Assembly: GCA_040772845.1 (NCBI GenBank)
Contig: JAXGXG010000001.1
Coordinates: forward strand, 1,470,211 to 1,534,210
Reading direction: 5' to 3'
Length of the DNA: 64,000 bases
Source: Thermoguttaceae bacterium
Lineage (GTDB): Bacteria > Planctomycetota > Planctomycetia > Pirellulales > Thermoguttaceae
Under the pieces are notes generated by a model. The model worked only from the letters and a program-made list of their open reading frames with translations, did not search any database and was not told where the DNA came from. Positions 2,171-58,244 of this stretch are shown one piece after another; the stretch's first letter is position 1, and each line of letters begins with the position of its first letter. The position numbers and the translations under genes are program-made.

Positions 2171-2481
2171 CGGAGTTCCTCCGTTCGTGTTCTATAGGTA
2201 TCTTTGTAGTTGTCAAACACCGCTCCACCGACGCAGGGTCGGTGGTGGCGTTTTCAGTTTGAGTCATTAGTATATCGCGCCAATCCGGCGGCAACCAGTT
2301 GTGGCCGTTTGTCAGCCGTGCAAGTCCGCTGCCGCACCCGCGCAAATCCTTGACCGAACACCTTCCAGAGCGAATCCATGCCATCCCAGATTCTTTGCTC
2401 CCGAACCGGGCGTGATTGACCCGTTCTCCGACGAAGAGCAGGTTGCCGACCAGACGCACCCGATTGTTCTGGCACACGTTC

Positions 2482-9669: not shown

Positions 9670-11142
9670 TCAGACCTTCTCGGCCGACGGCACAACGAAC
9701 GGTTCACGGTAGTCGCGAGTCAGCAGCGCATTGGCCTGCGAATTATCGACAAACGTCTCACTCTCCGGATCAATCTCCAACCACGGGCCGAGCACCAGCG
9801 GCGGGAAGATCACGCGGCGCTGTTCCATGTCGAATTCGTTCGCCTTCAAGTGCTCTTGGATTCCGTTGTAGACCGCTACCGGGTCGCCGTTGACCTTGAG
9901 CGACTGCAATCGGCCGGTGATCTCCTCCGGCGAGGCCGGCTGCCCCAGAAGCTGTGAGATATTGGCGACGTGGACCAGCGCCGTCGAGACGTGCCCCTCG
10001 TGAATCGGAGCATTCAGGTCGCTTACCTTCCGGCTGCGCACCGCCTTGATGAAGTTGGCAACGTGGTCTTCGCTCTCTCCGGTAAGCTTCTCGACCACCT
10101 TGCCCTCGAGATCGAATACCGTGTTCGAGCCGAGCGACCCAACCATGTATCCTTCGGTCCCTTCGATCAGCAAGGCGCCGCCCCGCTCGGGGGCAGCCGA
10201 CTTCAGGTTGCGGACCTCCTGCACCACGGTCAGATCCCCAAAGTCGTGGATGGTAACCTGCGTGTTCGGCGTTTCGCCCGCGTCATCGAACTGGCGGGCG
10301 CCGTAGCTTAGCACGCGCCGGCCTAGCCCTTGCAGGCCGAGGATCAGCCGCATGGTATCGACCACGTGGACGCTATTGTTGCCCAGCTCGCCATTGCCGT
10401 AGTCCCAGAGCCAGTGCCAGTCGTAATGGAAATGGGGCCGCCGGACAGGTATCTGCATGGGCGCAGGGCCGGCCCAAAGGTTGTAATCCACCGTGGCCGG
10501 CGGATCGTATTCACCTGCCGGGCCCATATGGTTGCGAGGCCGATACATTCGCAGATGCGCAAGGCTGATCTTGCCGAGTTTGCCCGACCTGATGTACTCG
10601 GCCGCCGCCCGGTTGCTGCCCACGGACCGATACTGCGTTCCGCCCTGGCAGATTCGGTTGTACTTCTCCATGGCCTGGACCATGCGACGACCTTCGCTCA
10701 CGTTGTGGCTGACCGGTTTCTCGACATACACGTCCTTCCCCGCCTGCATGGCCCAAATGGCCGCCAGCGAGTGCCAGTGGTTGGGCGTGGCGACCACAAC
10801 GATGTCTACCGACGGATCGTCGAACACGTCGCGCATGTCGGTAACGCACTTCGGCGCCCGCCCGCCCTGGCGCTGGCCGATCTGTTCCGCCCGTTTCGGG
10901 CCGATGGCCGAATCGGGCTCGCAGACGTACGTAATCTCGCAGTCGTCGCGAGAACCGAACGCGGTCGCGTGCGCGGCGCCGCGGCCCCGTACGCCCAGCA
11001 CGGCAACCGACAGCTTCTCGTTCGGGCTTTTGGATTGCTTCTCCTCCGCCAGAATGCGCGCGGCGGGGGTCGTCGCGGCCAGAGCGGTTGCCGTGGCAAG
11101 CATGGAGTCTTTCAAGAAGCAACGTCGGCTGAAGTGTTTCAT
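9670..11142 (-). CDS. Gfo/Idh/MocA-family oxidoreductase with Tat signal
   Basis: Twin-arginine motif SRRCFLK; Rossmann segment KLSVAVLGVRGRGAAHA; conserved EKP (VYVEKPV) of the Gfo/Idh/MocA family. Confidence 0.8.
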   Translation of the reverse strand: MKHFSRRCFLKDSMLATATALAATTPAARILAEEKQSKSPNEKLSVAVLGVRGRGAAHATAFGSRDDCEITYVCEPDSAIGPKRAEQIGQRQGGRAPKCVTDMRDVFDDPSVDIVVVATPNHWHSLAAIWAMQAGKDVYVEKPVSHNVSEGRRMVQAMEKYNRICQGGTQYRSVGSNRAAAEYIRSGKLGKISLAHLRMYRPRNHMGPAGEYDPPATVDYNLWAGPAPMQIPVRRPHFHYDWHWLWDYGNGELGNNSVHVVDTMRLILGLQGLGRRVLSYGARQFDDAGETPNTQVTIHDFGDLTVVQEVRNLKSAAPERGGALLIEGTEGYMVGSLGSNTVFDLEGKVVEKLTGESEDHVANFIKAVRSRKVSDLNAPIHEGHVSTALVHVANISQLLGQPASPEEITGRLQSLKVNGDPVAVYNGIQEHLKANEFDMEQRRVIFPPLVLGPWLEIDPESETFVDNSQANALLTRDYREPFVVPSAEKV

Positions 11143-14241: not shown

Positions 14242-14369
14242 GCGCTCGTACCGCTTGCCCTTCCAGCCGGCGGGCCTCGTCCTTCGCAACTGCTTGTCGC
14301 AAACGGCCGCCTTCGCGTGCAGCCGAGAAGGGCATCCTCGCCGGCGCCCCATGACACTTGCGCGAACGC

Positions 14370-14936
14370 CTATCTTCGCCCTGCGGCGCGGAGGAGTTCG
14401 TCGCTCCAGACGGCTTCGGGCGGCGCAAGGGGCGGGATGGGCTCTGCGCGATAATCGATGGTATCGTAACGCCCGTTGCGATAGCACGTTGCGACCAGGG
14501 GTTGAAGGTCCAGCTTCAGCTCCTCATCGGTCGGGCGAAGCGGCACGGGGATCGCCGGAAGCGCCCTGGATAAACGCATCGCATGAACCGCCACGCAGTC
14601 GGGCTTCCATCCCCGATAGATGCACGCCTGGTACGCCGCGCGGTACCGGGGCGGGATCATGCCTGGCCGGGCGACCGTCACCCGCTGGCCGGAACGGGTC
14701 AGATCGACCTCGACCAAGCTTGCCCCGGCCGCCATGACTTCCCGCTGTTTGCGGAGGTAGAGGTCCTGGCCGGCGCCCGGAACCTTATTGGCAGGGCTGA
14801 GGAACTCGATGACGGTAACCACACGGTTGCCGGAACCTACATCGACGATTTCGAGGTAGCCTTGCGTGATCGGCTCGTGGCGAAGAGAAAGAACGACTCT
14901 CAGAAGCTGTTCTGATCGACAACTTCGCCACCGTCA
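14370..14936 (-). pseudogene. 5'-truncated DUF4058-family (restriction-endonuclease-like fold) gene remnant
   Basis: ORF 14370..14822 starts at GTG with VTVIEFLSPANKVPGAGQDLYLRKQREVMAAGASLVEVDLTRSG and ends ..IPVPLRPTDEELKLDLQPLVATCYRNGRYDTIDY. The same frame stays open to 14936 (..HEPITQGYLEIVDVGSGNR) without any start codon and runs into the 3' end of the DUF1559 gene. About 100 N-terminal residues expected for the family are missing. Confidence 0.55.
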
Positions 14937-15907
14937 CGCGAACCTAACCAAAGATGGGTTTCCGAATCGATGGTGAAGCTGATCGCGCGAACCGAGCCGT
15001 CGCACAATGCCATGTTGAAAACGCCACTGTGCGTACTGCCGAACGTGTAGGCGCCCAGCACGCCGGCTCGATCCTGCAACGGAACCCAGTACGTGCTCCG
15101 CAATACGTCCTGATCGTGGCCCACGTACATGGCCTGGTCGTCGTTACTGGCGCTGCCGGTCTCATAATGGTCGGGGATCAGATACTTCTCGCCCACCATG
15201 TACGTGTTGGTCAGACCGTCGCTGATCATGGCCGTCGTAACCTTGCTTCGCCGGTAGACGACCCCGTTGTACTTGTTGCCGCTCTGGTAACTGTCGATCC
15301 ATTGCTGCTCGCTCAGACTGTCGCCGGCATCGTAGGATCCCGGGCTGCCCCCTCCCCAGTAGCCCACGCTGCCCATATTCGCCGCGTAGTCGCTGCGTCC
15401 GGCAACCGAGGCCGAAACACTCAGCCGGTAGGCCGTCTTGTTCGGATACGCCACCGAGTCGCGCCGGCTCGGACAGTTCTGAAACGAAAGCGACGTCTCC
15501 ACGCACTGGGCCAATTCGGCCGCCTTCTGGGTACCTGAAAGCCCCTTGCCAAACGCCCCGAGTGTCTGCTGCTCGACAAAGGGAAGGATATTGTAGGCCC
15601 ACCCGCCCGGCTGCTGTTTGTCAAAGCCGCGGTCGGGATCTCCTACCCACTGACACCCCCAGCCGCCGGTCGGGAAATGGCGATGGGCACTCTCGTGATT
15701 CAAAAACGCCAGCCCGATCTGCTTCAAATGGTTCTGACACTGCATTCGCCGCGCCGCCTCACGCGCCGACTGGACCGCCGGCAGCAGCAAAGCAATCAAA
15801 ATGCCGATGATCGCAATCACGACAAGAAGCTCAATAAGCGTAAAACCTCTGTTCACGCCTCGAATCGCAGATTTCCAATGGGGCATCATTGCAACCTCCC
15901 CTAACAA
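14900..15907 (-). CDS. DUF1559 protein with prepilin-type N-terminal methylation domain (second paralog)
   Basis: [57 protein letters not shown]..; C-terminal CDGSVR motif shared with the 4625..5689 copy. Confidence 0.8.
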
Positions 15908-16137
15908 GTAGAAGTCTCAACTACACACAATACTGGCCCCCCGTCAGAACCGCAATAGCCAACCAATCGCCTGCCCGACAAAGGTCACCAACAATAGACC
16001 GGACAACGGCACGGTGTGCAACCGATAATCGATAGACCCCGTACAACCTGCAACCCACCCACTTCCCAGGCAGGGCCCTTGCCGGTATCCTCGATAGATT
16101 CGACTTCCCCGTGCCCTTTCCGCGATATGCGTTGACT

Positions 16138-18768
16138 ATGAGAACCGACGAACTCCGCGAAGCGTATCTTGCCTTCTTTGAAAGCAAAGGCTGTGTCCGC
16201 CGACCGAGCGATGTGCTTGTCCCCCGCTGGGACCCTTCCGTCCTGTTCACCCCGGCCGGAATGAACCAGTTCAAAGACCACTTTATGGGCCGGACGAAGC
16301 TCGAGTTCACGCGAGCCACCACCTGCCAAAAATGCCTGCGAACCGGCGACATCGACAATGTGGGCCGTACGGCGTACCACCATACGTTTTTCGAGATGCT
16401 GGGCAATTTCAGCTTTGGCGACTATTTCAAACGGGAAGCGATCCTGTGGGCGTGGGAGTTCTGTACGGATAAGCGATGGCTCGGCCTGGATCCGGCGCGG
16501 CTTTCGGCCACCGTCTACCTGGACGACGACGAGGCGGCCGACATCTGGCTGAAGGAGGTGAAGCTCCCTCCGGAGAAGTTGGAGCGTCTGGACGAAGACG
16601 AGAACTTCTGGCCGGCCAACGCGCCCAGCCAGGGGCCGGATGGCGTTTGCGGTCCGTGCAGCGAAATCTACTATCACACCGACCGCGGCTCCGTGGAGAT
16701 ATGGAACCTGGTATTCACCCAGTTCAACCGTGTGGGTGACCCGCCGGATAATCTCCGTCCGTTGCCCAGCCGGAATATCGATACGGGCATGGGGCTGGAA
16801 CGAACGGCGGCGGTGTTGCAGGGAGTGGAGACGAACTTCCACATTGACATTTTGCGTCCGCTGGTGGAAGCGGCGGCCGAGGTATGCGGCGTTACCTACA
16901 ATCCGGCCGACGAAACCGGCCGGCGGGTCCGCCGGATTGCCGACCACGTGCGTGCGTGCTCCTTCGCCATCCACGAAAACGTCTATCCGGGGCCGAACAA
17001 GGAGAAGTACGTTATCAAGCGTCTGCTGCGCCGGGCCGTTTTGGACGGCCGGCAGATGGGCGTCGGCGAGCCGTTCCTGTACAAGCTGGTCGGCAAGGTG
17101 GCGGAACTGATGGAGACGTCCTATCCGGAACTCGGGCAGACGGTCGAGCGGGTGGCCAACGTCATCCAGCAGGAGGAATCGAACTTCCTGGGAACGATTG
17201 ATGGCGGCCTGGAACGGATCGGGCGCATTTTCGACCAGATGAAGCGAGACGGGCACGGCACGGTGGCCGGTACCGATGCCGCCGAGATGTACACCACATA
17301 TGGTTTCCCGCCCGAATTGTTCGAGACTCTCGCGGCCGAACACAACCTGACGTTCGACTGGCCCGGCTACCAGAAGGAAATGGCGCTCCACGGCGAGCTA
17401 TCCGGAACAGGTGAAAAGACTGTTTTTAAGCACGACCCGCTCGAAGCCATCAAGAAAATGCGGCACGGCAGCCAATTTCTGGGCTACGAGACCACCAAGG
17501 TCGAAGACGCCGAGATTCTGGCGATCGTGGCAGGCGGGCAACTTTGCGACCAGGCGGACGAGATCGACTCGGCCCAGCCGATCACGGTTGTGCTGGACCA
17601 GACCCCCTTTTACGGCGAGATGGGCGGCCAGGTGGGCGATACGGGTGAAATCGTCGGCCCCGGATTCCGGTTCGAGGTCGTCACAACGCAGGTGGACGGC
17701 GCATTCACGCTGCATTGCGGCCACCTTCGAGAGGGGGCGATTCGCCTGGGCGAGAAGGTCTCCGCCCAAATCGACGCCTCCCGGCGTCAAGGAATCCGCC
17801 GGGCGCACTCGGCAACCCACCTCCTGCACAGCGCGCTACGGAAGGTGCTGGGCGACCATGCAGAACAACAGGGCTCGAAGGTCGACGACGACTGGCTTCG
17901 GTTCGATTTCACCAATCCGCAGGCGGTCAAATCGGACGAACTGGTCGAAATCGAGCGCGACGCCAATGCCCGCATCCTCGAGAGCGCGGCGGTCGTTGCG
18001 AAGGATATGCCGTTGATCGAGGCCCGGAAGACGGGCGCCACGATGCTCTTCGGCGAGAAGTACCCTGATGTCGTCCGCGTCATCTCGATGGGCGACTTCA
18101 GCAAGGAGTTGTGTGGCGGCACCCACCTGGACAATACGGCCCAGGTAGGCCTGCTGAAGATTGTTTCGGAAGAGAGCGTCGCATCCGGCACACGGCGGAT
18201 TGTCGCGCTGACCGGACGGAAAGCGATGGAACACATCCGTTCGCACGAGCAGGCATTGCACCAGGCGGCGGTGGCGCTGCGGACCTCGCCCGAGGAACTT
18301 CCCAGCCGCGTCGAGGCAATGGCCCACGAGATCCGCGACCTGCGGAAGAAACTGAGCCAGGCAGCCCCCCAGCAGGAAGGCCCCTCGATCGATGACCTGA
18401 AAGACGGTTCGACCGAAGTGCTCGGCGTACGGGTCGTTGCAACGGAAATACCGGGTGCGCGCCCGGACGCGATGCGTCACCTGATCGACCAACTCCGCCG
18501 GAAGGCAGCGCCGGTTGCGGTGCTGCTCGCGTCATGCGAGGAGGAGAAGGTTACATTGATCGCCGGGGCGAGCCGCGACATAGTGGAACAAGGATTCGAC
18601 TGCGTTGCGTGGATCCGAGCCGTGGCGAAGCGGGTTGGTGGCGGGGGGGGTGGCCGCCCCGACATGGCCCAGGCGGGCGGCAAGAAGCCCGGGGCACTTC
18701 CGCAGGCGCTCCAGGCCGCTTCGGAAGAAGCCGAAAGCCTCCTGAAGAAAACGCCGAAACAATCGTGA
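16138..18768 (+). CDS. alaS: Alanine--tRNA ligase
   Basis: MRTDELREAYLAFFESKG.., FTPAGMNQFK, class II catalytic core, editing-domain HSATHLLH, C-terminal DHHA1-like region; 876 aa. Confidence 0.95.
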   Translation: MRTDELREAYLAFFESKGCVRRPSDVLVPRWDPSVLFTPAGMNQFKDHFMGRTKLEFTRATTCQKCLRTGDIDNVGRTAYHHTFFEMLGNFSFGDYFKREAILWAWEFCTDKRWLGLDPARLSATVYLDDDEAADIWLKEVKLPPEKLERLDEDENFWPANAPSQGPDGVCGPCSEIYYHTDRGSVEIWNLVFTQFNRVGDPPDNLRPLPSRNIDTGMGLERTAAVLQGVETNFHIDILRPLVEAAAEVCGVTYNPADETGRRVRRIADHVRACSFAIHENVYPGPNKEKYVIKRLLRRAVLDGRQMGVGEPFLYKLVGKVAELMETSYPELGQTVERVANVIQQEESNFLGTIDGGLERIGRIFDQMKRDGHGTVAGTDAAEMYTTYGFPPELFETLAAEHNLTFDWPGYQKEMALHGELSGTGEKTVFKHDPLEAIKKMRHGSQFLGYETTKVEDAEILAIVAGGQLCDQADEIDSAQPITVVLDQTPFYGEMGGQVGDTGEIVGPGFRFEVVTTQVDGAFTLHCGHLREGAIRLGEKVSAQIDASRRQGIRRAHSATHLLHSALRKVLGDHAEQQGSKVDDDWLRFDFTNPQAVKSDELVEIERDANARILESAAVVAKDMPLIEARKTGATMLFGEKYPDVVRVISMGDFSKELCGGTHLDNTAQVGLLKIVSEESVASGTRRIVALTGRKAMEHIRSHEQALHQAAVALRTSPEELPSRVEAMAHEIRDLRKKLSQAAPQQEGPSIDDLKDGSTEVLGVRVVATEIPGARPDAMRHLIDQLRRKAAPVAVLLASCEEEKVTLIAGASRDIVEQGFDCVAWIRAVAKRVGGGGGGRPDMAQAGGKKPGALPQALQAASEEAESLLKKTPKQS

Positions 18769-39542: not shown

Positions 39543-40865
39543 ATGAGCGATAGTATTTCCCGCGGCGTATGGCGGAAACGACATCAGGCCGTCTCGGCCG
39601 GCGCCCTGGCTGCCGGGTTGAGCATTGCCCGAGGCGCGCACGCCGCCGGCAGTGATGCGATTCGGATCGGGTTCATCGGCTGTGGCAACCGAGGCACGGG
39701 CGCGTGCAAAGAGGCACTGAGCACCAAGGTCCCGACAAAGCTCGTGGCCGTGGGCGACCTGTTCTCCGAACGCATCGAACGCAGCCTCCGCAACCTGAGC
39801 AAGTACCCCGACATCAATGCACGCATGGACGTACCGGCCGAGCGGCAGTTCACCGGCTTCGACGCGTACGAGAAAGTCCTTGATGCCGGCGTCGATCTGG
39901 TGCTACTGACCACGCCGCCCCATTTCCGACCCATGCAGTATGCGGCGGCCATCGCGGCAGGTAAGCACGTATTCATGGAGAAGCCGCTCTGCATCGACGC
40001 ACCCGGCTACCGCACCCTTGTCGCCACGAACAAGCAGGCGTTGGCCACCAAATGCTCGGTCGTGGTCGGCATGCAGCGGCGGCACCAGCCCAACTACCTC
40101 CAAGGCATCCAGAAGATCCACGACGGCCTGCTGGGCGACGTCCAACTCATTCGCACCTACTTCAACATGCCAGGCGGCGGACGCTCCGGCTGGCTCAAGC
40201 CGGAGGGCATGGGCGAAATGGAATACCAGATCCGCCACTGGGCCGTCTTCTGCTGGCTCTGCGGCGATCACCTGGTCGAGCAGGCGACGCACGAAATCGA
40301 CGTGGCCAACTGGGTCATGAACGGCCATCCGGTCAAGGCCAACGGTCAGGGCAGCCGGCAGATACGGTTCGGACCGGGCAACGGCGATATCTGGGACCAT
40401 CACTTTATCGAATACGAGTACGACAACGGCGTGCGGTTCTACTGCCAGGCACGGCAGCAGCCAGGCACTTGGAGCCACGTATCGGACACGGTGCACGGCA
40501 CGAAGAACGTCGTCACGCTCGGCACGGGCGCCTGGGGTATGGGCGACGTCACGCCGCGCGAGTTGCGGTCTCGCGCCTATCGCGGCGTGAACCCGTACCA
40601 GCAGGAGCACGAGGACCTGGCCGACAGCATCGCCGGCGTCGGGCGCTACCGCATGGAGGCCGACTACGGGGCCGACAGCAGCATGACGGCCGTCATGGGC
40701 CGCATGGCCACCTATTCCGGCCAGATGCTCACCTGGGAGCAGGCCACAGCGTCGGAAGTCCGCCTTGCCCCCGAGCGTTACGCCTTCGACGCCGATCCCC
40801 CCACCCTTCCCGACGCCACCGGCGCCTACCCCGCCGCCGTCCCCGGAATGCCAGGTGCGTTTTAA
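39543..40865 (+). CDS. Gfo/Idh/MocA-family oxidoreductase (second copy), N-terminal export signal
   Basis: IRIGFIGCGNRG Rossmann motif, FMEKPL, signal-like N-terminus with KR pair and AHAAG cleavage region. Confidence 0.8.
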   Translation: MSDSISRGVWRKRHQAVSAGALAAGLSIARGAHAAGSDAIRIGFIGCGNRGTGACKEALSTKVPTKLVAVGDLFSERIERSLRNLSKYPDINARMDVPAERQFTGFDAYEKVLDAGVDLVLLTTPPHFRPMQYAAAIAAGKHVFMEKPLCIDAPGYRTLVATNKQALATKCSVVVGMQRRHQPNYLQGIQKIHDGLLGDVQLIRTYFNMPGGGRSGWLKPEGMGEMEYQIRHWAVFCWLCGDHLVEQATHEIDVANWVMNGHPVKANGQGSRQIRFGPGNGDIWDHHFIEYEYDNGVRFYCQARQQPGTWSHVSDTVHGTKNVVTLGTGAWGMGDVTPRELRSRAYRGVNPYQQEHEDLADSIAGVGRYRMEADYGADSSMTAVMGRMATYSGQMLTWEQATASEVRLAPERYAFDADPPTLPDATGAYPAAVPGMPGAF

Positions 40866-47358: not shown

Positions 47359-48726
47359 ATGAACGAGTCGAAGAAGAGCCGCCGCCAGTTCTTGGAAGCG
47401 GCGGGCGCGGTGAGTGCCGCCTCGATTGTTACCGCTACCGCCGGGATGAATAGCAGTTTTGGCGCCGAGGGGAAGGAAAAGCTTGCCATCGACGGCGGAA
47501 CGCCAGTGCGCAAGACGCCGCTCCACCACCAGGCATACGGGCCCCAGTTCTACAACGAGGTCGAAAAGCGGGAAATCCTCGAAGTCCTCGAGTCCAGAAA
47601 ACCATTCCGCTGGTGGAAGGGCGATTCCAAGTCGCTCCAGTTCGAGCAAGCCTACGCCGCGCACCTGGGAGTCAAGTACGCGATCGGCGTCACTTCCGGA
47701 ACGACCGCGCTGGCAGCCGCCTTGGCCGCCCTGGAAATCGGTCCCGGCGACGAAGTCATTCTCCCCGCGTGGACCTGGTATGCCGATTACGATACGGTCG
47801 TCCTCGCCGGCGCGCTGCCCGTCTTTGCCGAGGTGGACCTGTCACTGAACATCGACCCGACCGATATCGAGGCCCGAATCACGCCGCGCACCAAGGCAAT
47901 CATCGCCGTCAGCCTGCAAGGATGCCCGGCCGATATGGACCCGATCCTTGCCATTGCCCGCAAGCATAACCTCCGCGTTTTGGAAGATTTTTCGCAGTGC
48001 GTCGGCGGTCGTTACCGGGGCAAATACCTTGGCTCGATGGGCGATATCGGCATCAGCAGCTTCCAGCAGAGCAAGACGATCACGGCCGGAGAAGGCGGCG
48101 CCGTGGTGACCAACGATCCGGAACTGTTCGAGCGGGCCGTCCGCGCCCACGACGTCGGATCGATTCGCGCCCCTTACACGGAAATGCTGGGCGGCGGCCG
48201 AATTCCAGGCTTTGCCGCATCGAACTACCGCATGAACGAGTTCACCGGCGCCATTCTCAAAGCGCAGGAGCAAGATCTCGAAACGATCTGCACCAAGTTG
48301 CGCGACAACGCACGCAAGGTGCGCGAAGGAATTGCCGACCTGCCAGGCCTGAAGATGCGGAAGACGCCGGACCTGGAAGGCGATCTGGGGGTCACCATCT
48401 TCCTGGATCACGGCAACCAGCAGCAGCGCGATCGATTCTTGCGGGCCCTGCGAGCCGAGGGCATTAGTGCATCGCCTCCCGGCGGCTCGGTCATTCTGCC
48501 AATCAACGAGCGCGTCGAAAACAAGGTCACCGTCCACCCCGAGTGGCCTTCCTTCACCACGCCGCAAGGCAAGGCCATTCGCTACGGGCGAGAGTCCTGC
48601 CCGCAGACCATCGACGTCCAAAGCCGATTGGGCGGCGTGATCATGGACCCCAATTTCACCGAGGAGGACATCAACGACATCATTACAGGCATCCGCAAGG
48701 TATACCTGGCCATGTACACCGCATGA
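47359..48726 (+). CDS. DegT/DnrJ/EryC1/StrS-family PLP-dependent aminotransferase with Tat signal
   Basis: SRRQFLEAAGAVSAASIVTATA twin-arginine signal, then a canonical sugar-aminotransferase fold (..GVTSGTTAL.., ..SFQQSKTITAGEGGAVVT.. containing the PLP Lys). Confidence 0.8.
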   Translation: MNESKKSRRQFLEAAGAVSAASIVTATAGMNSSFGAEGKEKLAIDGGTPVRKTPLHHQAYGPQFYNEVEKREILEVLESRKPFRWWKGDSKSLQFEQAYAAHLGVKYAIGVTSGTTALAAALAALEIGPGDEVILPAWTWYADYDTVVLAGALPVFAEVDLSLNIDPTDIEARITPRTKAIIAVSLQGCPADMDPILAIARKHNLRVLEDFSQCVGGRYRGKYLGSMGDIGISSFQQSKTITAGEGGAVVTNDPELFERAVRAHDVGSIRAPYTEMLGGGRIPGFAASNYRMNEFTGAILKAQEQDLETICTKLRDNARKVREGIADLPGLKMRKTPDLEGDLGVTIFLDHGNQQQRDRFLRALRAEGISASPPGGSVILPINERVENKVTVHPEWPSFTTPQGKAIRYGRESCPQTIDVQSRLGGVIMDPNFTEEDINDIITGIRKVYLAMYTA

Positions 48727-48934
48727 GCGTCCGAAGTGCGGCGCGCCGCGCGTCCCATGCGCCCTGCGGCGCGCCGCCAGGTGTTCTAACTGCCGCCTGC
48801 CTTCCCATCAAAACTCTGTGACAATCGAGCCGAACCGTATCGCGCCCGTCCGGACAGCCATTCCTCCCACGGAACGGCTCCCCACACCGGTTGAGTCCGG
48901 CTCGCCTCCCTCTGCCTCGAAAGGAACCGCGATC

Positions 48935-50284
48935 ATGAAAGACCAAGTCACGCGACGCACCTTCATTCAAACCACCGCGGCCGGCTCGGCCACACTGGCA
49001 GGACTCAGCAGCGGCGTCCCTACGGTCTTCGCCGCCAATGTCGACAAGCCGGCCCTGCTCGGCGGAACTCGCGCCCACCAGGGCGGCTGGCCCAAATGGC
49101 CCGAGTGGAACGAAGCCTGGGAACCCGAAATCCTCGATGTCTTGCGCAGCGGCCGATGGTGCGGTCACGGCGGCGACGGCAAGGTGGGCGAATTCGAATC
49201 CGCCTATGCCAATCTGCTCGGCGCAAAACGATGCGTCACCACGGCCAGCGGCACCGCCGCACTGCTGACTGCCCTGTACGTTGCAGGCGTCGATGCCGGC
49301 GATGAGGTGATCGTTTCGCCCTATACGTTCATCGCCACCTACAACACCATCCTCATGCAGAAGGCGCTGCCCGTCTTTGCCGATACGGACCCGGCCACGC
49401 TCACCATGGACCCGGCCTCGATCGAGAGTCGCATCACCGAGCGGACCCGCGCCATCGTACCGGTCCACATCTATGGCATGCCCTGCGATATGGACCCGAT
49501 CAACGCCATCGCCAAGAAGCACAATCTGGCGGTTGTCGAAGACGCATGCCAGGCGTGGTTGGCCGAATATAAGGGCAAGAAATGCGGGACCCTGGGCGAC
49601 CTGGGCTGCTTCAGCTTCCAGAACTCCAAGCACATTCCTGCAGGCGACAGCGGCGCCATCACCGGCAATAGCGACGAGCTGATGGACCGCTGTCAGGCCT
49701 TCCACAATGTGGGGCGAGCATTCGGCGCCTTCAAAGGCAGCGGCTCGTTCACCCGCGGCAGCAATTTCCGAATGAACCAGTATCAGGCCGCCCTGCTGAT
49801 CCAGCAGATCGACAAACTGGTGCGCGAGACCGAAGTCCGCCGCCAGAACGCCGACTACCTCACCGCCGGCCTCAAAGACATCCCCGGCGTCGAACCGGTA
49901 CGCCTGCCGGAAAACACCCGCCCTGTATGGCATCTGTACGCGTTCCGCTACGATCCGGAGCAGTTCCATGGCCTCTCGCGCGACAAGTTCCGCAAGGCCT
50001 TAAGCGCCGAAGGCATTCCGACCAGCGGCGGCTATCACGAACAGTACAACGACGGCCTGCTCGATGAAGCCATCCAATCGCGCGGCTTCCAACGCCTGTT
50101 CCCCGCCGAACGGCTGAAGGCCTATCGCGCGAGCTTCCAGGAACTCCGAGGCAACAAGCAGGTGTGCGAGACAACCGTGGGTGTATTCAATACACTTCTT
50201 CTGGCCGACCGCAGCGACGTCGACCACATCCTGCAGGCAATCCGCAGAATTCACGCCCACAGCGCCGCCCTGGGGGATGCGTAG
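48935..50284 (+). CDS. DegT/DnrJ/EryC1-family PLP-dependent aminotransferase with Tat signal (paralog)
   Basis: MKDQVTRRTFIQTTAAGSATLAGL signal; ..TTASGTAAL.., ..SFQNSKHIPAGDSGAITG.. (PLP Lys). Start at the internal Met (48935) preceded by AAAGGAA. Confidence 0.8.
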   Translation: MKDQVTRRTFIQTTAAGSATLAGLSSGVPTVFAANVDKPALLGGTRAHQGGWPKWPEWNEAWEPEILDVLRSGRWCGHGGDGKVGEFESAYANLLGAKRCVTTASGTAALLTALYVAGVDAGDEVIVSPYTFIATYNTILMQKALPVFADTDPATLTMDPASIESRITERTRAIVPVHIYGMPCDMDPINAIAKKHNLAVVEDACQAWLAEYKGKKCGTLGDLGCFSFQNSKHIPAGDSGAITGNSDELMDRCQAFHNVGRAFGAFKGSGSFTRGSNFRMNQYQAALLIQQIDKLVRETEVRRQNADYLTAGLKDIPGVEPVRLPENTRPVWHLYAFRYDPEQFHGLSRDKFRKALSAEGIPTSGGYHEQYNDGLLDEAIQSRGFQRLFPAERLKAYRASFQELRGNKQVCETTVGVFNTLLLADRSDVDHILQAIRRIHAHSAALGDA

Positions 50285-50441
50285 TCGGCAGAAGTGCAGT
50301 TTTCCGTCGCGCTATTAAGATTCTCCGGGGCATGTTTTCCGTGAGAGATGCGGGATCGTGCGCCGACGGGCATTCTGTTGACATTCTCCATGGCGTGAAT
50401 GACAATAGGAGCGATTCGTACTCAAAACAGGAGCTATTTCC

Positions 50442-51365
50442 ATGGCGCGTCGCACCCGTTCTGACATGCTCGTTTCCCGCCGCCGTTTTCTCGCCGCAGC
50501 CTGTGCCGCACCGGCGGTCATGGCCGCCGCGCCTGCCGGTCAAGCCGCAGAAATGCCGGCCGATGTGCCTGGCGAGGATTACCATATCGAACGCGGTCGC
50601 ATCAAGCAGTCGGTCTACGGCTGGCCGTTCGCACCCATGCCCATGGAAACGCTCATTCGCGCGTCCCATCGGATGGGCATCCGAGCCATGGACGTCGGTA
50701 AGGATCATTACCCGCTGTTGAAAGAGCTGGGCATGATGGTCATGATGGTCAGCGCCCACGGGTTCAAGATCGGGCCGCTCAATCGAGAGAATCACCCCTT
50801 CTGCATCGAACGATTGCGCAGTGCCATCGACACGGCCGTCCAGTGGGGCTCGCCCCACGTCATTACGTTCACCGGAATGCGAGAGAAAGGCATTACCGAC
50901 GAGCAGGCGGCCCAGAACTGTGTGGACTGCTGGAAGCAGGTGGCCGGCTACGCCGAGGAGAAGGGCATCAACATGTGCCTGGAAATTCTCAACTCGCGCG
51001 ACGATACGCACCCGATGAAGGGCCATCCCGGCCAGTTCGGCGACGACGTCGATCTGTGCATCGATATGATCCGCCGCGTCGATAGCCCGCGCATGAAGCT
51101 GCTATTCGACGTCTATCACGTGCAGGTGATGAACGGCGATATTATCCGCCGCATCCGGCAGTACAACGAGTACATCGGCCACTACCACGTGGCCGGCTGC
51201 CCCGGACGCGGCGAACCTGACGACACGCAAGAACTCAACGTGCCGGCCATCCTGCGCGCCATTCTCGAAACCGGCTACACGGGCCACGTTTCGCAGGAGT
51301 TCATCCCCACCTGGCCCGACAAACTGGCCGCCCTGCGCTACGCGGTCCGCAAGTGCGACGTGTGA
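50442..51365 (+). CDS. Xylose-isomerase-like TIM-barrel protein (sugar phosphate isomerase/epimerase family) with Tat signal
   Basis: SRRRFLAAACAAPAVMAAAPAGQA signal; conserved E/H/D metal-site pattern (..NMCLEILN.., ..FDVYHVQ.., ..HYHVAG..). Confidence 0.75.
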   Translation: MARRTRSDMLVSRRRFLAAACAAPAVMAAAPAGQAAEMPADVPGEDYHIERGRIKQSVYGWPFAPMPMETLIRASHRMGIRAMDVGKDHYPLLKELGMMVMMVSAHGFKIGPLNRENHPFCIERLRSAIDTAVQWGSPHVITFTGMREKGITDEQAAQNCVDCWKQVAGYAEEKGINMCLEILNSRDDTHPMKGHPGQFGDDVDLCIDMIRRVDSPRMKLLFDVYHVQVMNGDIIRRIRQYNEYIGHYHVAGCPGRGEPDDTQELNVPAILRAILETGYTGHVSQEFIPTWPDKLAALRYAVRKCDV

Positions 51366-51601
51366 CGCCATCTCGGCCTTCCACCATGCGAACAAGGCCC
51401 GTAGATTCTTCGGAAATGCGAAAATGCTGGTCTTCCCTGCCAGGCAAGACACCACTATAATAGGCCTTTGCATTATCGACCGGAAGAAGGGACGCAACGG
51501 CACGGCGGATCGAACTGCGGTGGCGTGGCAATACGCAGGCTTGGCGGATCACCTGGAGAAACGGAAGCAATCGGCTGGAAGCGGAAAGGGAGGCGCGTTC
51601 G

Positions 51602-51817
51602 ATGCGGACTGTTGTCGCCGTCTTGATAGTCTTGCTCTCCCTGGCCGCGCCGGCGCCCAACGCAGAAGGGCGAACGTGGACCGATTTGCTGGGCAACCAG
51701 ACCACTGCGGATTTCGTCCGGGTCCACAACGGAATGGTCATTCTGCTCCGATTCCCCAGAACGCTGACGGCCAGCACCCGGATGCTGCGACCGCTGGCAA
51801 CGACGCCAGCCGGATGA
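51602..51817 (+). CDS. Small secreted protein with SHD1-like N-terminal motif (possibly the 5' part of a frameshifted gene)
   Basis: MRTVVAVLIVLLSLAAPAPNAEG signal, then RTWTDLLGNQTTADFVRVHNGMVILL (resembles an SLA1-homology SHD1 start). TGA overlaps the ATG of the next ORF. Confidence 0.4.
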   Translation: MRTVVAVLIVLLSLAAPAPNAEGRTWTDLLGNQTTADFVRVHNGMVILLRFPRTLTASTRMLRPLATTPAG

Positions 51818-52386
51818 CGGCCGACCAGGTCCAGGCCGAACTGGTGCGACTCCAGCAACTTGCCATGCAACGCCAGCAGGAACAGGGCGCGCTTCCCGAA
51901 AGTCCTCACAGCGAACCGGTCACCCCTGCCCAGCACGGGCAACAGGAAGCACACCAATCGCCAACCCGCTGGATTCCACCGCAACATCAGCCGGCCGGGC
52001 AAATCCCCGGGCAAACGGTGGGCCAACAGGGACCTCAAGACGGCGAGGCGCGCCAACGCGCCCTGCTGGAAGAAAAGGCGGCCTGGAAACGGTTCCAAAA
52101 AGAGCCGAACCTACCGATCCCTCACCTGATCATCTCCAACTGCAACCGTACCTGCGGCAAGTGCGACCACGCCGTCCCCGATTACGCCCAACTCGGCGAG
52201 AAGTGCCCGTGGTGCGGCACGGTGTGGCAATACGAGACCGATTACGCCGGCAAGGTGATCGACCGAACAAGACCTCCCAGGACGAGCCTGCTGAAGATTT
52301 GTGCCGGCATCGGGCTTTGGGCCCTGCTGTTCCTGGTGATTGGCGTAGCCATCCGCATTGTGCGCGCGATTACCGGCCAGGCCTAG
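51814..52386 (+). CDS. Gln/Pro-rich protein with zinc ribbon and C-terminal TM anchor
   Basis: MTADQVQAELVRLQQLAMQRQQEQ.. ..CNRTCGKCDHAVPDYAQLGEKCPWCG.. ..LLKICAGIGLWALLFLVIGVAIRIV. The ORF-track N-terminus from 51424 is not coding. Confidence 0.45.
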   Translation: MTADQVQAELVRLQQLAMQRQQEQGALPESPHSEPVTPAQHGQQEAHQSPTRWIPPQHQPAGQIPGQTVGQQGPQDGEARQRALLEEKAAWKRFQKEPNLPIPHLIISNCNRTCGKCDHAVPDYAQLGEKCPWCGTVWQYETDYAGKVIDRTRPPRTSLLKICAGIGLWALLFLVIGVAIRIVRAITGQA

Positions 52387-52761: not shown

Positions 52762-52829
52762 CTTCTCGTGCTTGGTTTTCTGCCGTTTTGTGATTGCATC
52801 TACAGAGAGCGGAACAAGGGAGGCACCCA

Positions 52830-54080
52830 ATGCGCGTTCTCCAAAGGGCAGGTTTCCAGGGCCTATGGGTTCTCGGTATTCTCATTGTCGGCGTCATCTC
52901 AGACGCCCATTCCGACGATTGGCCTCAGTGGCGTGGTCCGAATCGCGACGGCATCTGCGAGGAAGAGGGCCTGTTGGACGAGTGGCCCGCGGGTGGACCC
53001 AGACTGCTGTGGAAAGCGACGGGCCTGGGCGAGGGGTTCAGCGGGCCGGCCATTGTTGGCGATCGTCTTTTCAGTATGGGCAGCGCAGGTGGGCAGGAAT
53101 GGGTTTTCTGTCTCGATCTGACGAAAGAGGGCAAGCCGGTCTGGGGAACGCCGCTGGGCCAGGTTCGACACAAGGGAGGCGGCTATCCCGGGCCTCGGGC
53201 GACGCCGACCATCGACGGCGACCAACTCTTCACACTTGGGATCAGCGGCGATCTTGTGTGCCTCGACGCGCGGAGCGGCAAGCCTGCCTGGCGCGTCGAT
53301 CTGACTCGCGACCTCGGCGGTAGTGCGCCTCAGTGGGGCTACAGCGAATCGGTCCTGGTCGATGGCCCCGTCGTGCTGTGCACGCCGGGCGGTCAACGGG
53401 CGACCATGGCCGCGTTGAACAAGAAGAACGGCCGTCCGGTTTGGACCGCTCCGATTGGCGATCCGGCCGCGTACAGTTCCATTATCAAGGCGAATCTGGC
53501 TGGTGTCCCGCAGTACGTTACCCTGACGGGCAAAGGCGTGATCGGCGTGGCGGCCAAGGACGGGACGCCGTTGTGGCGATACGATCGGCCGGCAAACAGC
53601 ACGGCGAGTATCCCCACGTGCATCCACTACGGGCAAACCATCTTCGGCGCGAGCGGATACGGAACGGGCGGCGGCGCCGTCTGGATCAAGCGGGCCGGGA
53701 AAGGTCTCGTTGCCGAGGAACTGTACTTCACCAAGGACATGCAGAACCACCACGGCGGCGTGATCCGCGTGGGCGACTATCTGTACGGCGCCAGCAATCC
53801 GGGCATTCTGACCTGCATCAACTACCGCACGGGTGAAACCGTATGGAAAGAGCGCAAGCCTGGCAAATGTTCGCTTCTGTATGCCGATGGCATGCTCTAC
53901 TGCCGCGACGAGAAAGGCCCGATCACTTTGGTCGAGGCGACTCATGAGGGGTACCGGGAGCACGGGCGGTTCGATCAGCCGGACCGGAGTGAACGCGAGG
54001 CATGGCCCCACCCGGTCATTGCCGACGGCAAGCTCTATATTCGCGACCAGGACGTGCTGCTGTGCTACCAGGTGAAGTAG
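52830..54080 (+). CDS. PQQ-repeat beta-propeller protein (BamB-like fold), secreted
   Basis: Signal/TM then DWPQWRGPNRDG and repeated ..LY..D/G..G..VW.. blades. Confidence 0.75.
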   Translation: MRVLQRAGFQGLWVLGILIVGVISDAHSDDWPQWRGPNRDGICEEEGLLDEWPAGGPRLLWKATGLGEGFSGPAIVGDRLFSMGSAGGQEWVFCLDLTKEGKPVWGTPLGQVRHKGGGYPGPRATPTIDGDQLFTLGISGDLVCLDARSGKPAWRVDLTRDLGGSAPQWGYSESVLVDGPVVLCTPGGQRATMAALNKKNGRPVWTAPIGDPAAYSSIIKANLAGVPQYVTLTGKGVIGVAAKDGTPLWRYDRPANSTASIPTCIHYGQTIFGASGYGTGGGAVWIKRAGKGLVAEELYFTKDMQNHHGGVIRVGDYLYGASNPGILTCINYRTGETVWKERKPGKCSLLYADGMLYCRDEKGPITLVEATHEGYREHGRFDQPDRSEREAWPHPVIADGKLYIRDQDVLLCYQVK

Positions 54081-54112: not shown

Positions 54113-56326
<2,214 letters not shown>

Positions 56327-56406: not shown

Positions 56407-58149
56407 TCATTTACCTGCGGTCATCTCCAGCACCGATGCCTCACATGCGTCGAAGGCGTCGCGGATGGGTTGGATGCGTTGCTTCACGTCGTCGGACTTC
56501 GCCCGGCTTGCGGCGTCGTCGAGCAGCTTGCGGAGCTGGTCGCAGGTGGGCTGGTCGAAGATCTTCGGGCCCAGCCGCTTGGCGCTGCCCTGGCGCAGCC
56601 CGTACGAAATGCACTGGTCGCTCTTGACCATCGTGTCTTCCAGCCCTGTGAGGTAGGCCTTCATCGGTTCGGCGGCTTCCTGGAAGAAGGCCGTACAGAA
56701 GTCGTCGATCAGCCAGTCGACGTTCAGGTCGGCATTCCACGCCAGCTTGGCGGCAATGTAGTAGTTCAACGGTGAACTGGGCCAGTTGCCCACCTGCGTG
56801 TAGAAACCGCGGGCGCCGCAATCGCGGTAGAAGGGGATGTCGTGGCGCATGGTATGGACCATGGGCCACAGCATGTTCGTCTTGGACCAACCGCCCAATG
56901 CGTAATACTCGTAGATGAACAGGTTATTGGAAAGGCCGGACCACTGGCGCACCAGCTCGGCGAACCGCTGATTCGGCAGGAAGTTGTCGCTCGGCTCGTA
57001 CGTTTTGCCGGCCTGGCACTGGTCCGAAGTGATTGGGTGGTTGTGGCAGAAGTAGATGTGACAAAGCTGAATGATCTGGTTGGGCTCGGGCCGCCAGTCG
57101 GGAATCTCAGGCGGCAAGGCGTACATGGCATACGCTCCAACCTTCACCAGTACATCCGGATGCTTCTCTGCAATCCGGCGTGAGATCTCCTTGTTCAACG
57201 CGGCGAGGCGTTTCGAGTACCTGGCGAACCAGCCCCGTTCGGGCTCGTCCAGTGCGGTACACTTGGGACACTCGCAGAATCCGCCGCCGTCGTTTGGCGA
57301 AAGTGTGATGATCTCGATGGAGGGATCGGCGTCCAGAACCTCAATCATCCCCTTCGCCAGTTTGTCGATCACCTCCGGGTTGGTCGTACAGAGCTGGGCG
57401 CCGTGGCTGGGACGCTCTTTGAACGTCTTCCGCTTGCCGTTGATCATGGCGAACCATTCCGGGTGCTGTTCGGAAAACTCTTCGGGCGGGACCAGAATGG
57501 CAAACGTGTGGAAGTGCCACTTCCAGTTGACTCCCACCGGGCGCCCGTCCACCTTCACGTAGCAGTTCATCCGCTGCTTGAGCGACCAATCGCTGTTGTG
57601 AATCCATCGGAACTCGAACGACGGACGCACCTGCCGCTCGAACGTACCTATCGATACAGTAGCCGCCTTCGGAACGACCTCGTCGGCAGTGCCCGGCTCG
57701 AACCAACGAACGCCGAACTCGCGCTCGACCAGATCGTACACGCCAAACAGGGTCGCCAGGGGCGTGACGCCGCACAGCACGAGACCGCCGTCATCGCACC
57801 GGACGGCATGGCCGTCGCGCGACAGTTGGTCCTTCCCGAGGATCAAGCCGGCCTGCTTCGCCTTCTGTGTCTTGCCGACCCAGATGCCGAAGCCGTCGGG
57901 ATTTGTCGGCTCGTTGACAATCGGCAGTTCCTTGCCCGTAATCTTCCGCACATAACCTTGCAGCTCACTCGCCGCATGCTGTTCAAGCCAGTCGGGCTCG
58001 TTGGAGATAACGATGGTTGCGGCCGGGCCATCGGAAGTGACCAAGGCGTGCATGGGACCGGGCGACGGGGCAAGCGTCGCCTCGCCAGCCGCGAGTGATG
58101 TCGCCCCCAACACGCCTACCACGAGAAACAGCGAGAGACAAAGACGCAT
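56407..58149 (-). CDS. Secreted DUF4838-like putative glycoside hydrolase
   Basis: Signal peptide MRLCLSLFLVVGVLGATSLAAG; Cys cluster CECPKC; overall resemblance to DUF4838/GH20-related proteins. Start at the internal Met with signal peptide. Confidence 0.55.
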   Translation of the reverse strand: MRLCLSLFLVVGVLGATSLAAGEATLAPSPGPMHALVTSDGPAATIVISNEPDWLEQHAASELQGYVRKITGKELPIVNEPTNPDGFGIWVGKTQKAKQAGLILGKDQLSRDGHAVRCDDGGLVLCGVTPLATLFGVYDLVEREFGVRWFEPGTADEVVPKAATVSIGTFERQVRPSFEFRWIHNSDWSLKQRMNCYVKVDGRPVGVNWKWHFHTFAILVPPEEFSEQHPEWFAMINGKRKTFKERPSHGAQLCTTNPEVIDKLAKGMIEVLDADPSIEIITLSPNDGGGFCECPKCTALDEPERGWFARYSKRLAALNKEISRRIAEKHPDVLVKVGAYAMYALPPEIPDWRPEPNQIIQLCHIYFCHNHPITSDQCQAGKTYEPSDNFLPNQRFAELVRQWSGLSNNLFIYEYYALGGWSKTNMLWPMVHTMRHDIPFYRDCGARGFYTQVGNWPSSPLNYYIAAKLAWNADLNVDWLIDDFCTAFFQEAAEPMKAYLTGLEDTMVKSDQCISYGLRQGSAKRLGPKIFDQPTCDQLRKLLDDAASRAKSDDVKQRIQPIRDAFDACEASVLEMTAGK

Positions 58150-58244
58150 GGTCGGTCCTCCACGTTCAGGCTGATTGGCAGAGATACACTCGGTCGTTCC
58201 GCGTCCGGACGACGACAACTTCGGCCCCGGGCAAGCCTATCCGC

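Follow-up and report, generated by a model that had tools for sequence, protein, structure and literature searches.

Three consecutive genes on the forward strand of a 64,000-nucleotide stretch of a Thermoguttaceae genome (GenBank assembly GCA_040772845.1, contig JAXGXG010000001.1, positions 1,470,211 to 1,534,210; hereafter, the window) begin with twin-arginine motifs, and we designate them here as genes A, B, and C. A and B are paralogous members of the DegT family of pyridoxal phosphate (PLP)-dependent aminotransferases. Comparison with relatives in other genomes indicates that both are very likely genuine DegT enzymes that are exported, and that they probably belong to a conserved planctomycete gene module; C appears to be a bystander. 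Our combined reading, which we hold as a close call, is that A and B would form the exported DegT pair of a periplasmic module interconverting alcohols, ketones, and amines, with the catabolic direction favored.

Gene A (47359..48726, + strand) is an open reading frame (ORF) of 455 amino acids, and gene B (48935..50284, +) is one of 449. Both match PF01041 (DegT_DnrJ_EryC1), A with 259.4 bits (E = 7.8e-77) and B with 307.7 bits (E = 1.6e-91), versus a Pfam gathering cutoff of 19.8 bits. Gene C (50442..51365, +; 307 amino acids) matches the xylose isomerase-like TIM-barrel family PF01261 (95.2 bits, E = 6.5e-27; Pfam cutoff, 31.1 bits). A sequence-only reading of this DNA had already placed three ORFs of these families at these positions on the + strand and had called A and B paralogs; the ORFs and Pfam matches bear out the former, and an identity of 39% between A and B (E = 2e-70) bears out the latter. 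The reading frame of B extends upstream to a GTG at 48818, but the N termini of its orthologs (MKD.VTRR.F) favor the ATG at 48935. The active-site motifs of the family are present in both enzymes: the catalytic (Schiff-base) lysine lies in SSFQQSK in A (stretch SSFQQSKTITAGEGG) and in FSFQNSK in B (stretch FSFQNSKHIPAGDSG), and the E-D motif, whose aspartate we take to be the residue that binds the PLP pyridine nitrogen, reads LEDFSQ in A and VEDACQ in B. The S-F-x-x-x-K lysine is invariant in a 21-sequence alignment (A1), where it is K239. A, B, and C each fall below the cutoff of every named NCBIfam equivalog; against the named DegT equivalogs (WecE, ArnB, PseC, LegC, DesI, RfbH, and others), A and B reach at best 174 to 198 bits, versus cutoffs of 375 to 420.

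The N termini of the three proteins carry the motifs SRRQFLE (A), TRRTFIQ (B), and SRRRFLA (C). Mean Kyte-Doolittle hydropathy over the 22 residues after the arginine pair is 0.90 for A and 0.64 for B, within a span of 0.64 to 1.15 for the three, and each extension finishes in an A-x-A-like end (FGA before E in A, VFA before A in B, GQA before A in C). The predicted twin-arginine translocation (Tat) signal peptides would cover residues 1 to ~36 of A (47359..47466, +; MNESKKSRRQFLEAAGAVSAASIVTATAGMNSSFGA, followed by EG) and residues 1 to ~33 of B (48935..49033, +; MKDQVTRRTFIQTTAAGSATLAGLSSGVPTVFA, followed by AN), both cleavage sites being predictions. Among the 120 best database homologs of A (at least 70% identical, mostly from Pirellulales and Thermoguttaceae), 117 retain RR-x-F-L; of the three exceptions, two are truncated at the N terminus and one has a long N-terminal extension. 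After the motif, the residues of these homologs vary yet remain rich in Ala, Gly, and Ser and end in an AxA-like sequence. The arginine pair is likewise retained in genes from other genomes, namely, in 74/75 of A type and 16/17 of B type, in three further types of Tat-bearing DegT gene (L2c, 23/23; L2a, 8/8; L1x, 4/4), and in 28/31 genes of the Gfo/Idh/MocA subfamily described below as Gfo_L2. For C, at least 102 of 114 homologs keep it, and several of the printed exceptions keep RR followed by W.

Profile searches gave a mixed picture. The Tat signal model TIGR01409 (cutoff, 16.7 bits) scores 19.1 bits with C and 16.9 bits with the N-terminal peptide of A, and PF10518 scores 17.2 bits with A, below its cutoff of 22.7. 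Across 72 DegT N-terminal peptides, TIGR01409 matches 34 at an E value of ≤0.01; beyond it, there were matches to one further Tat model and one at chance level (E = 0.007). By their conservation in orthologs, the twin-arginine N termini noted in the sequence-only reading behave like real Tat signals. The next-nearest relatives of A (35 to 45% identical, ~420 amino acids), recovered by exhaustively searching 1.84 billion representatives, lack the extension and start at 'KLAIDGG.PVR', which corresponds to residue ~41 of A. Since the arginine pair is kept in orthologs and the extension is absent from the nearest signal-less relatives, the signal is best seen as a conserved add-on to an otherwise cytoplasmic type of enzyme. 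A rough neighbor-joining tree of DegT sequences splits the Tat-bearing members into three or more clades (that of A, which is nested among relatives without a signal; one of B, L2a, L2d, and L1x; and L2c alone), suggesting that the signal was gained two or three times. By a crude rule, Tat-like N termini occur in 7 of the 46 called genes of the window, and because they are this frequent, three such genes in a row would by themselves be weak evidence.

If the twin-arginine regions were not export signals, A and B could be ordinary cytoplasmic sugar aminotransferases for cell envelope glycan biosynthesis. The DegT family is otherwise cytoplasmic, and B has no listed match to any Tat hidden Markov model at an E value of ≤0.01, which counts against our reading as well as for this one. 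However, RR-x-F, the hydrophobic stretch, and the AxA-like end are kept across orthologs that are 64 to 87% identical while the remainder of the extension varies; the nearest relatives have no extension at all; the genes that recur beside A also bear Tat or Sec signals; and no glycosyltransferase or nucleotide-sugar gene was found near A and B or in the loci scanned. We consider a cytoplasmic role hardly credible on this evidence.

Gene neighborhoods were compared next. A scan of one genome per GTDB species returned at least 473 relatives of A. We kept 80 species-level loci, each with flanks of at most 10 kb; they represent Thermoguttaceae, Pirellulaceae, further Planctomycetota, and several Verrucomicrobiota, and counts are given over the 75 nonduplicate loci. 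Genes were called with a script based on G+C content at third codon positions (GC3), which reproduced the genes of the window, and were labeled by blastp against the proteins of the window and of two Pfam-annotated loci. As many contigs are short, the partner counts are lower bounds. Another Tat-DegT paralog lies within three genes of A in 33/75 loci (34/75 within ±10 kb), and B-type genes lie within three genes of A in 18/75. The corresponding counts are 31/75 (33/75) for one specific Tat Gfo/Idh/MocA subfamily, Gfo_L2; 23/75 (25/75) for an exported Rid-family protein; 11/75 (12/75) for a ceramidase-like gene; and 6/75 (10/75) for a XylR-type regulator. Gene order varies: B precedes A in loci L020, L036, and L041, and L048 has the Gfo-Rid pair in inverted orientation. 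Linkage that persists despite rearranged order argues for selection and against mere shared ancestry. Homologs of C were found within three genes of A in 0/75 loci (1/75 within ±10 kb), as were DUF1080 proteins (0/75 and 1/75), GH2 enzymes (0/75 and 0/75), and phosphoesterases (0/75 and 0/75).

Of the associations across genomes proposed in the sequence-only reading, that between DegT and Gfo/Idh/MocA genes is thus upheld by the Gfo_L2 counts, while those with xylose isomerase-like and DUF1080 genes did not materialize. Gfo_L2 proteins have a PF19051 C-terminal domain, and their nearest matches are the PDB dehydrogenases 8tdf/8tdh and 8tdi ('glucuronide-3-dehydrogenase') and the NCBIfam glycoside 3-dehydrogenase model BT_2158_fam (NF058561), the latter at 108 bits versus a cutoff of 750. 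The regulator combines a sugar-binding periplasmic binding protein (PBP) domain with an AraC-type helix-turn-helix and is divergently oriented in the full cluster. In the window, A and B are a partial copy of the cluster, the A-B pair only; B shares 74% identity with the fourth of the DegT genes in locus L002. Among the 80 loci, the cluster itself was not seen in those from Verrucomicrobiota. On these comparisons, A and B are likely members of a conserved planctomycete module. An alternative context occurs in a Thermoguttaceae genome (L001/L012:10001-19573), in which A is accompanied by a XylR-type regulator, two Gfo/Idh/MocA genes, a PQQ_2 beta-propeller, a third Gfo/Idh/MocA gene, and DUF6807, with signal-like N termini on all genes except the regulator.

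The sequence-only reading had also joined C to A and B in a three-gene module, and one could envisage a single functional unit in which the TIM barrel isomerizes or cleaves a keto-sugar intermediate of the aminotransferases. The three genes are consecutive on a common strand, all have twin-arginine N termini, and the 3-keto-glycoside and inositol pathways include TIM barrels from this superfamily that act on keto-sugars. C itself is hydroxypyruvate/2-oxo-tetronate isomerase-like: it scores 93.6 bits with TIGR03234 (cutoff, 353) and 87.1 bits with NF043033 (cutoff, 325), its best PDB matches are 3ngf, YgbM, and ketose 3-epimerases, and the Joint Genome Institute (JGI) name for its large family is 'hydroxypyruvate isomerase'. 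All of its PDB matches at an E value of ≤0.001 are isomerases or epimerases, none of them named a glycoside lyase or (C-glycoside) deglycosidase. Searching C against 83 loci by blastp and tblastn revealed no linkage to A-type genes, in line with its absence from within three genes of A in all 75 loci, and we rejected it as a partner of A and B. Conversely, four C orthologs (69 to 76% identical) in five genomic places have unrelated neighbors, with no DegT gene adjoining; one of the five places adjoins a Gfo/Idh/MocA gene. The spacing points the same way. The A-B gap is 208 bp, and the 157-bp B-C gap contains a sigma-70-like promoter match (50378..50406, +; TTGACA, 17 nucleotides, GACAAT), a match to the consensus only, which hints that C may be transcribed separately. 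The scan gave this one promoter-like site before C; its terminator-like sites were fewer than in shuffled sequences, which made the scan uninformative. Given the long gaps and the site before C, a single A-B-C operon is not established, and the abundance of Tat-like genes in the window (given above) takes away from the shared N termini. A functional unit of all three genes is thus most improbable; because C homologs are missing near A and C orthologs lack DegT neighbors, we conclude that C is an independent neighbor of A and B, a separately distributed, isomerase-like TIM barrel with predicted Tat export.

The nearest solved relatives of A and B bear on their substrates. The best PDB match of A is KdnA (5k8b, 203 bits), followed by 2-deoxy-scyllo-inosose aminotransferases, and A falls in a KdnA-like or 'FRYYG' subfamily. 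B falls in a 2-deoxy-scyllo-inosose aminotransferase-like subfamily, with best matches to 5w71 and 2c7t (~210 bits; full length in 5w70) and a further match to glutamine-scyllo-inositol transaminase. JGI labels many A homologs after KdnA, which we take as an automatic label and not a tested function. The proposal that the paralogs are distinct from ordinary nucleotide-sugar enzymes thus stands, by a modest margin: perosamine synthase, a nucleotide-sugar enzyme, follows closely at 166 to 175 bits versus 175 to 203 for the top matches. We therefore lean toward nucleotide-free sugars or cyclitols as substrates of A and B, a lean and not proof with nucleotide-sugar enzymes scoring so close behind. 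The kanosamine enzymes NtdC and NtdA, offered in the sequence-only reading as the analogy, proved a poor model, as NtdA scores 96 bits with A and 121 bits with B, versus 203 to 210 for KdnA and the 2-deoxy-scyllo-inosose aminotransferases, and no dehydrogenase adjoins A and B in the window; we ruled out this pair as the closest model.

Taken together, these data are compatible with a model in which A and B would fold and bind PLP in the cytoplasm, pass through the Tat system, and act as the central pair of a recurring Planctomycetota gene cluster. In full form, this cluster would consist of a divergent XylR-type regulator, two to four Tat-DegT paralogs, the Tat Gfo/Idh/MocA enzyme, an exported tandem Rid-family protein, and often an exported N-deacylase, and it may convert C-OH, C=O, and C-NH2 groups into one another, in the periplasm, on sugars or cyclitols without a nucleotide. 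In the deaminating direction, an amidase would uncover the amine, position-specific DegT enzymes would generate a keto-sugar by moving the amino group onto a keto acid, the Gfo/Idh/MocA enzyme with its bound nicotinamide cofactor would reduce or further process the ketone, and the Rid-family protein, which resembles imine/enamine hydrolases, would hydrolyze imine or enamine by-products. We favor this catabolic direction, though with somewhat less confidence than an even call would carry, because the amidases, the Rid-family protein, the multiple paralogs, and the sugar-type regulator all find an explanation in it.

Two sets of precedents make a periplasmic DegT-Gfo module plausible. The PLP enzymes PtaA and PvdN are exported by Tat, folded with the cofactor bound (PMC6206403), and Tat-exported Gfo/Idh/MocA enzymes are active in the periplasm, where their non-exchanging NAD(H) is regenerated by the pathway itself (10.1101/2024.03.25.586180).

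The same parts could also run the other way, as the sequence-only reading had it: a Tat Gfo/Idh/MocA enzyme would oxidize a glycoside hydroxyl (at C3, for example), and a DegT enzyme would transaminate the ketone with glutamate or glutamine to give an amino sugar. This direction suits the linkage of DegT and Gfo genes, the resemblance of Gfo_L2 to glycoside 3-dehydrogenases, and the fact that the characterized close relatives (KdnA and the 2-deoxy-scyllo-inosose aminotransferases) all run in the aminating direction. The cofactor economy could work as well: WbpB binds NADH tightly and is reoxidized by 2-oxoglutarate, yielding D-2-hydroxyglutarate (PMC8651671), and a DegT-Gfo pair behaving like WbpB/WbpE could use the 2-oxoglutarate it releases to reoxidize bound NADH and so be independent of a cofactor pool. 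Amination, however, would leave unexplained the recurrent exported amidases and Rid-family protein and the two to four paralogs per cluster, and there is no obvious use for periplasmic amino sugars under a catabolic-type XylR regulator. These features make it unlikely in our judgment, if still the weightiest of the alternatives to the deaminating module.

The amidases and the Rid-family protein merit closer description. A ceramidase_alk-like exported protein of ~460 amino acids is the most recurrent extra neighbor of A (within three genes in 11 of the 75 loci, as counted above), and in one 826-amino-acid protein, P0144, a ceramidase_alk domain is fused to an A-like DegT domain. The A-B pair of L004, the closest A-B-only locus (87% identical), is followed by a trio of genes on the opposite strand (L004:12820-13941, 14002-15276, and 15341-16207, all -), with signal-like N termini: a Tat-signal AstE/AspA-type deacylase; a 425-amino-acid protein that begins MKRRDFL and has no Pfam match; and a class-I glutamine amidotransferase/peptidase C26-like protein with a hydrophobic, Sec-like N terminus. 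Two Amidohydro_2 genes follow the signal-less relative P0132. Three different amidase families thus adjoin the DegT branch. The Rid-family protein of the cluster (L002:15774-17027, +, and orthologs) has 417 amino acids, tandem PF01042 (Ribonuc_L-PSP) domains, and a Sec or lipoprotein-type signal. Its first domain reads 'RPVITS' where the Thermotoga maritima homolog 2b33 reads 'RPARS', so that the motif arginine is absent; this residue is presumably the carboxylate-binding Arg105 of Escherichia coli RidA, and its loss would argue against an alpha-imino-acid substrate.

These same features raise the question of whether the substrates are sugars at all. A-type enzymes might instead deaminate sphingoid bases, N-acyl amino-alcohols, aminolipids, or similar amines that ceramidase-like amidases release, with the oxidoreductase acting on a neighboring hydroxyl. 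The recurrence of Ceramidase_alk and its fusion in P0144 favor this idea, as does the missing arginine of the first Rid domain. However, the characterized substrates of the DegT family are, without exception, sugars, sugar acids, or cyclitols; the PBP domain of the regulator is of the sugar-binding XylR type; the gene for P0144 adjoins one for a DUF4838 protein with a weak GH67N match; and the ceramidase Pfam matches are weak and confined to the N-terminal domain. We regard non-sugar substrates as improbable. Ceramidase_alk-like genes were recorded in loci L024, L031, L043, L044, L055, L057, L066, L067, L070, L073, L077, and L082. In L031, the ceramidase-like gene (2434-3861, +) lies directly upstream of an A-type DegT gene, and its signal peptide (MNRPMKNRREFLATVGAAGAASIVAGSAGAAAGFAAEG) is nearly identical to those of A-type DegT proteins; perhaps the neighboring genes swapped the signal, or the gene start may have been miscalled.

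Several observations weigh against the deaminating periplasmic module. The window has no Gfo_L2 ortholog (tblastn found only paralogs that are ~28 to 30% identical), no Rid-family gene, and no XylR gene. In about half of the A-type loci, A stands alone amid heterogeneous neighbors, and a pooled Pfam scan of 96 proteins from around such solo genes found no recurrent family except a weak ceramidase signal. Among the loci scanned, the cluster has no conserved gene for a transporter or for downstream catabolism. The catabolic direction is inferred only from the partner set and the type of regulator, the perosamine synthase scores given above leave nucleotide sugars close at hand, and a periplasmic transaminase would need a keto-acid or amino-acid cosubstrate outside the cytoplasm. 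In addition, the tree behind the two or three gains of the signal is rough, and an AlphaFold2 model of A built on alignment A1 was unusable (mean predicted local distance difference test score, 49; predicted template modeling score, 0.44).

Among other genes of the window, the sequence-only reading had listed a GH2 enzyme, a Tat-like metallophosphoesterase, and a DUF1080 protein within reach of A and B, and all three are present, with the DUF1080 protein, which resembles 3-keto-disaccharide hydrolases, matching PF06439 (58245..58973, -), the GH2 protein carrying a CBM60 domain, and the divergent neighbor of A, a calcineurin-like metallophosphoesterase matching PF00149 (45682..46744, -), beginning MKRRDFLRL from a start inferred at an internal Met. 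As conserved partners of A they are not supported, since none of them, the phosphoesterase included, lies within three genes of A in any of the 75 loci. The two nearby Tat Gfo/Idh/MocA genes of the same list fared unevenly: that at 9670..11142 has an arginine pair (SRRCFLK) but lies 36 kb from A, outside the 20 kb claimed, and that at 39543..40865 (+) has a signal-like N terminus, perhaps of the Sec or a variant Tat type, with WRKRHQ where a twin arginine would stand. These are the window's nearest candidates for a BT2158-type enzyme, 6.5 kb and 36 kb away, at 38 and 129 bits, respectively, versus the cutoff of 750, and only one of them has the arginine pair.

Downstream of C lie a PQQ_2 beta-propeller (52794-54080), a KatG catalase-peroxidase (54116-56326), a DUF4838 protein (56407-58218, -), and the DUF1080 protein described above; a DUF4838 gene also adjoins the ceramidase-DegT fusion in locus L091. 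Between C and the beta-propeller, a 320-amino-acid ORF (51424-52386, +) has no Pfam match, a GC3 of 0.68, below that of its neighbors, a Cys-rich CxxC...CxxC stretch, and a hydrophobic C terminus, and it may not be a real gene.

In the textbook view, DegT enzymes work in the cytoplasm, where they help make unusual amino sugars and aminoglycosides. If a large branch of them is exported, PLP-dependent transamination of sugars would extend to the periplasm, and the keto-sugar chemistry lately discovered there would acquire a way of handling nitrogen. Such a branch would also help explain how planctomycetes digest complex glycans in an enlarged periplasm. More speculatively, Planctomycetota, and possibly the A-bearing Verrucomicrobiota, might strip the amino sugars and aminocyclitols of environmental glycans, N-acylated or free, of their nitrogen before import, by a pathway contained wholly in the periplasm. 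Exported amidases would feed position-specific Tat DegT transaminases, whose ketones would pass to the exported Rid hydrolase and to a Tat Gfo/Idh/MocA enzyme that holds NAD(P)H. We consider this broader pathway possible and rather doubtful; if true, the DegT family would gain its first catabolic role and its first outside the cytoplasm. An exported branch also raises the question of where the cosubstrates would come from, both for a transaminase in the periplasm and for a dehydrogenase whose cofactor does not exchange, and cofactor-retaining sugar aminotransferases could find use in biocatalysis.

Among known systems, KdnA of Shewanella, the transaminase that forms 8-amino-3,8-dideoxy-manno-octulosonate (Kdo8N), is like A a DegT-fold PLP enzyme and acts on a free sugar acid without a nucleotide. 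It works with a dehydrogenase, KdnB. Unlike A, KdnA is cytoplasmic and biosynthetic and has no signal peptide, whereas A has its ~36-residue Tat extension and extra C-terminal sequence. The 2-deoxy-scyllo-inosose and scyllo-inosose aminotransferases (BtrR, 2c7t; 5w70/5w71; 7b0d), the best solved relatives of B and second best for A, act on cyclitol ketones without a nucleotide, and their pathways pair them with inositol-type dehydrogenases. They are cytoplasmic antibiotic biosynthesis enzymes of Actinobacteria and Bacillus, in contrast to A and B, which are predicted to be exported, come from Planctomycetota and Verrucomicrobiota, and belong to a cluster with a sugar-type regulator.

PtaA and PvdN belong to an aminotransferase family other than DegT and are absent from the 55 PDB matches of A at an E value of ≤1e-10. 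Both, which function in pyoverdine maturation, resemble the predicted A and B as PLP enzymes exported folded by Tat, and PtaA is a true periplasmic transaminase (PMC6206403); they differ in acting on a peptide siderophore side chain and in having no link to oxidoreductase or Rid-family genes. The pairs WbpB/WbpE, NtdC/NtdA, and RifL/RifK share with the cluster the combination of a Gfo/Idh/MocA and a DegT enzyme that converts an alcohol to a ketone to an amine, but they are cytoplasmic, use nucleotide sugars or sugar phosphates, and have no Rid-family or amidase partner.

The periplasmic 3-keto-glycoside pathway (BT2156-2160 and AL1-AL5) differs from the cluster in having no aminotransferase, and its DUF1080 and TIM-barrel partners lie within three genes of A in none of the 75 loci; in the window, no BT2158-type glycoside 3-dehydrogenase gene adjoins A and B. 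What it shares with the cluster is a Tat Gfo/Idh/MocA 3-dehydrogenase with non-exchanging NAD(H) in the periplasm, to which Gfo_L2 and the window gene at 9670..11142 are distant relatives (108 to 129 bits with NF058561, far below the equivalog cutoff). Our literature search found no paper on Tat-routed DegT enzymes or on an exported multi-paralog DegT cluster with Gfo and Rid-family partners, in keeping with the view of the sequence-only reading that a periplasmic, Tat-routed DegT branch is uncharacterized. The DegT fold, Gfo-DegT pairs, Tat export of PLP enzymes, and periplasmic keto-sugar chemistry are each already known singly; it is their combination that appears to be new.

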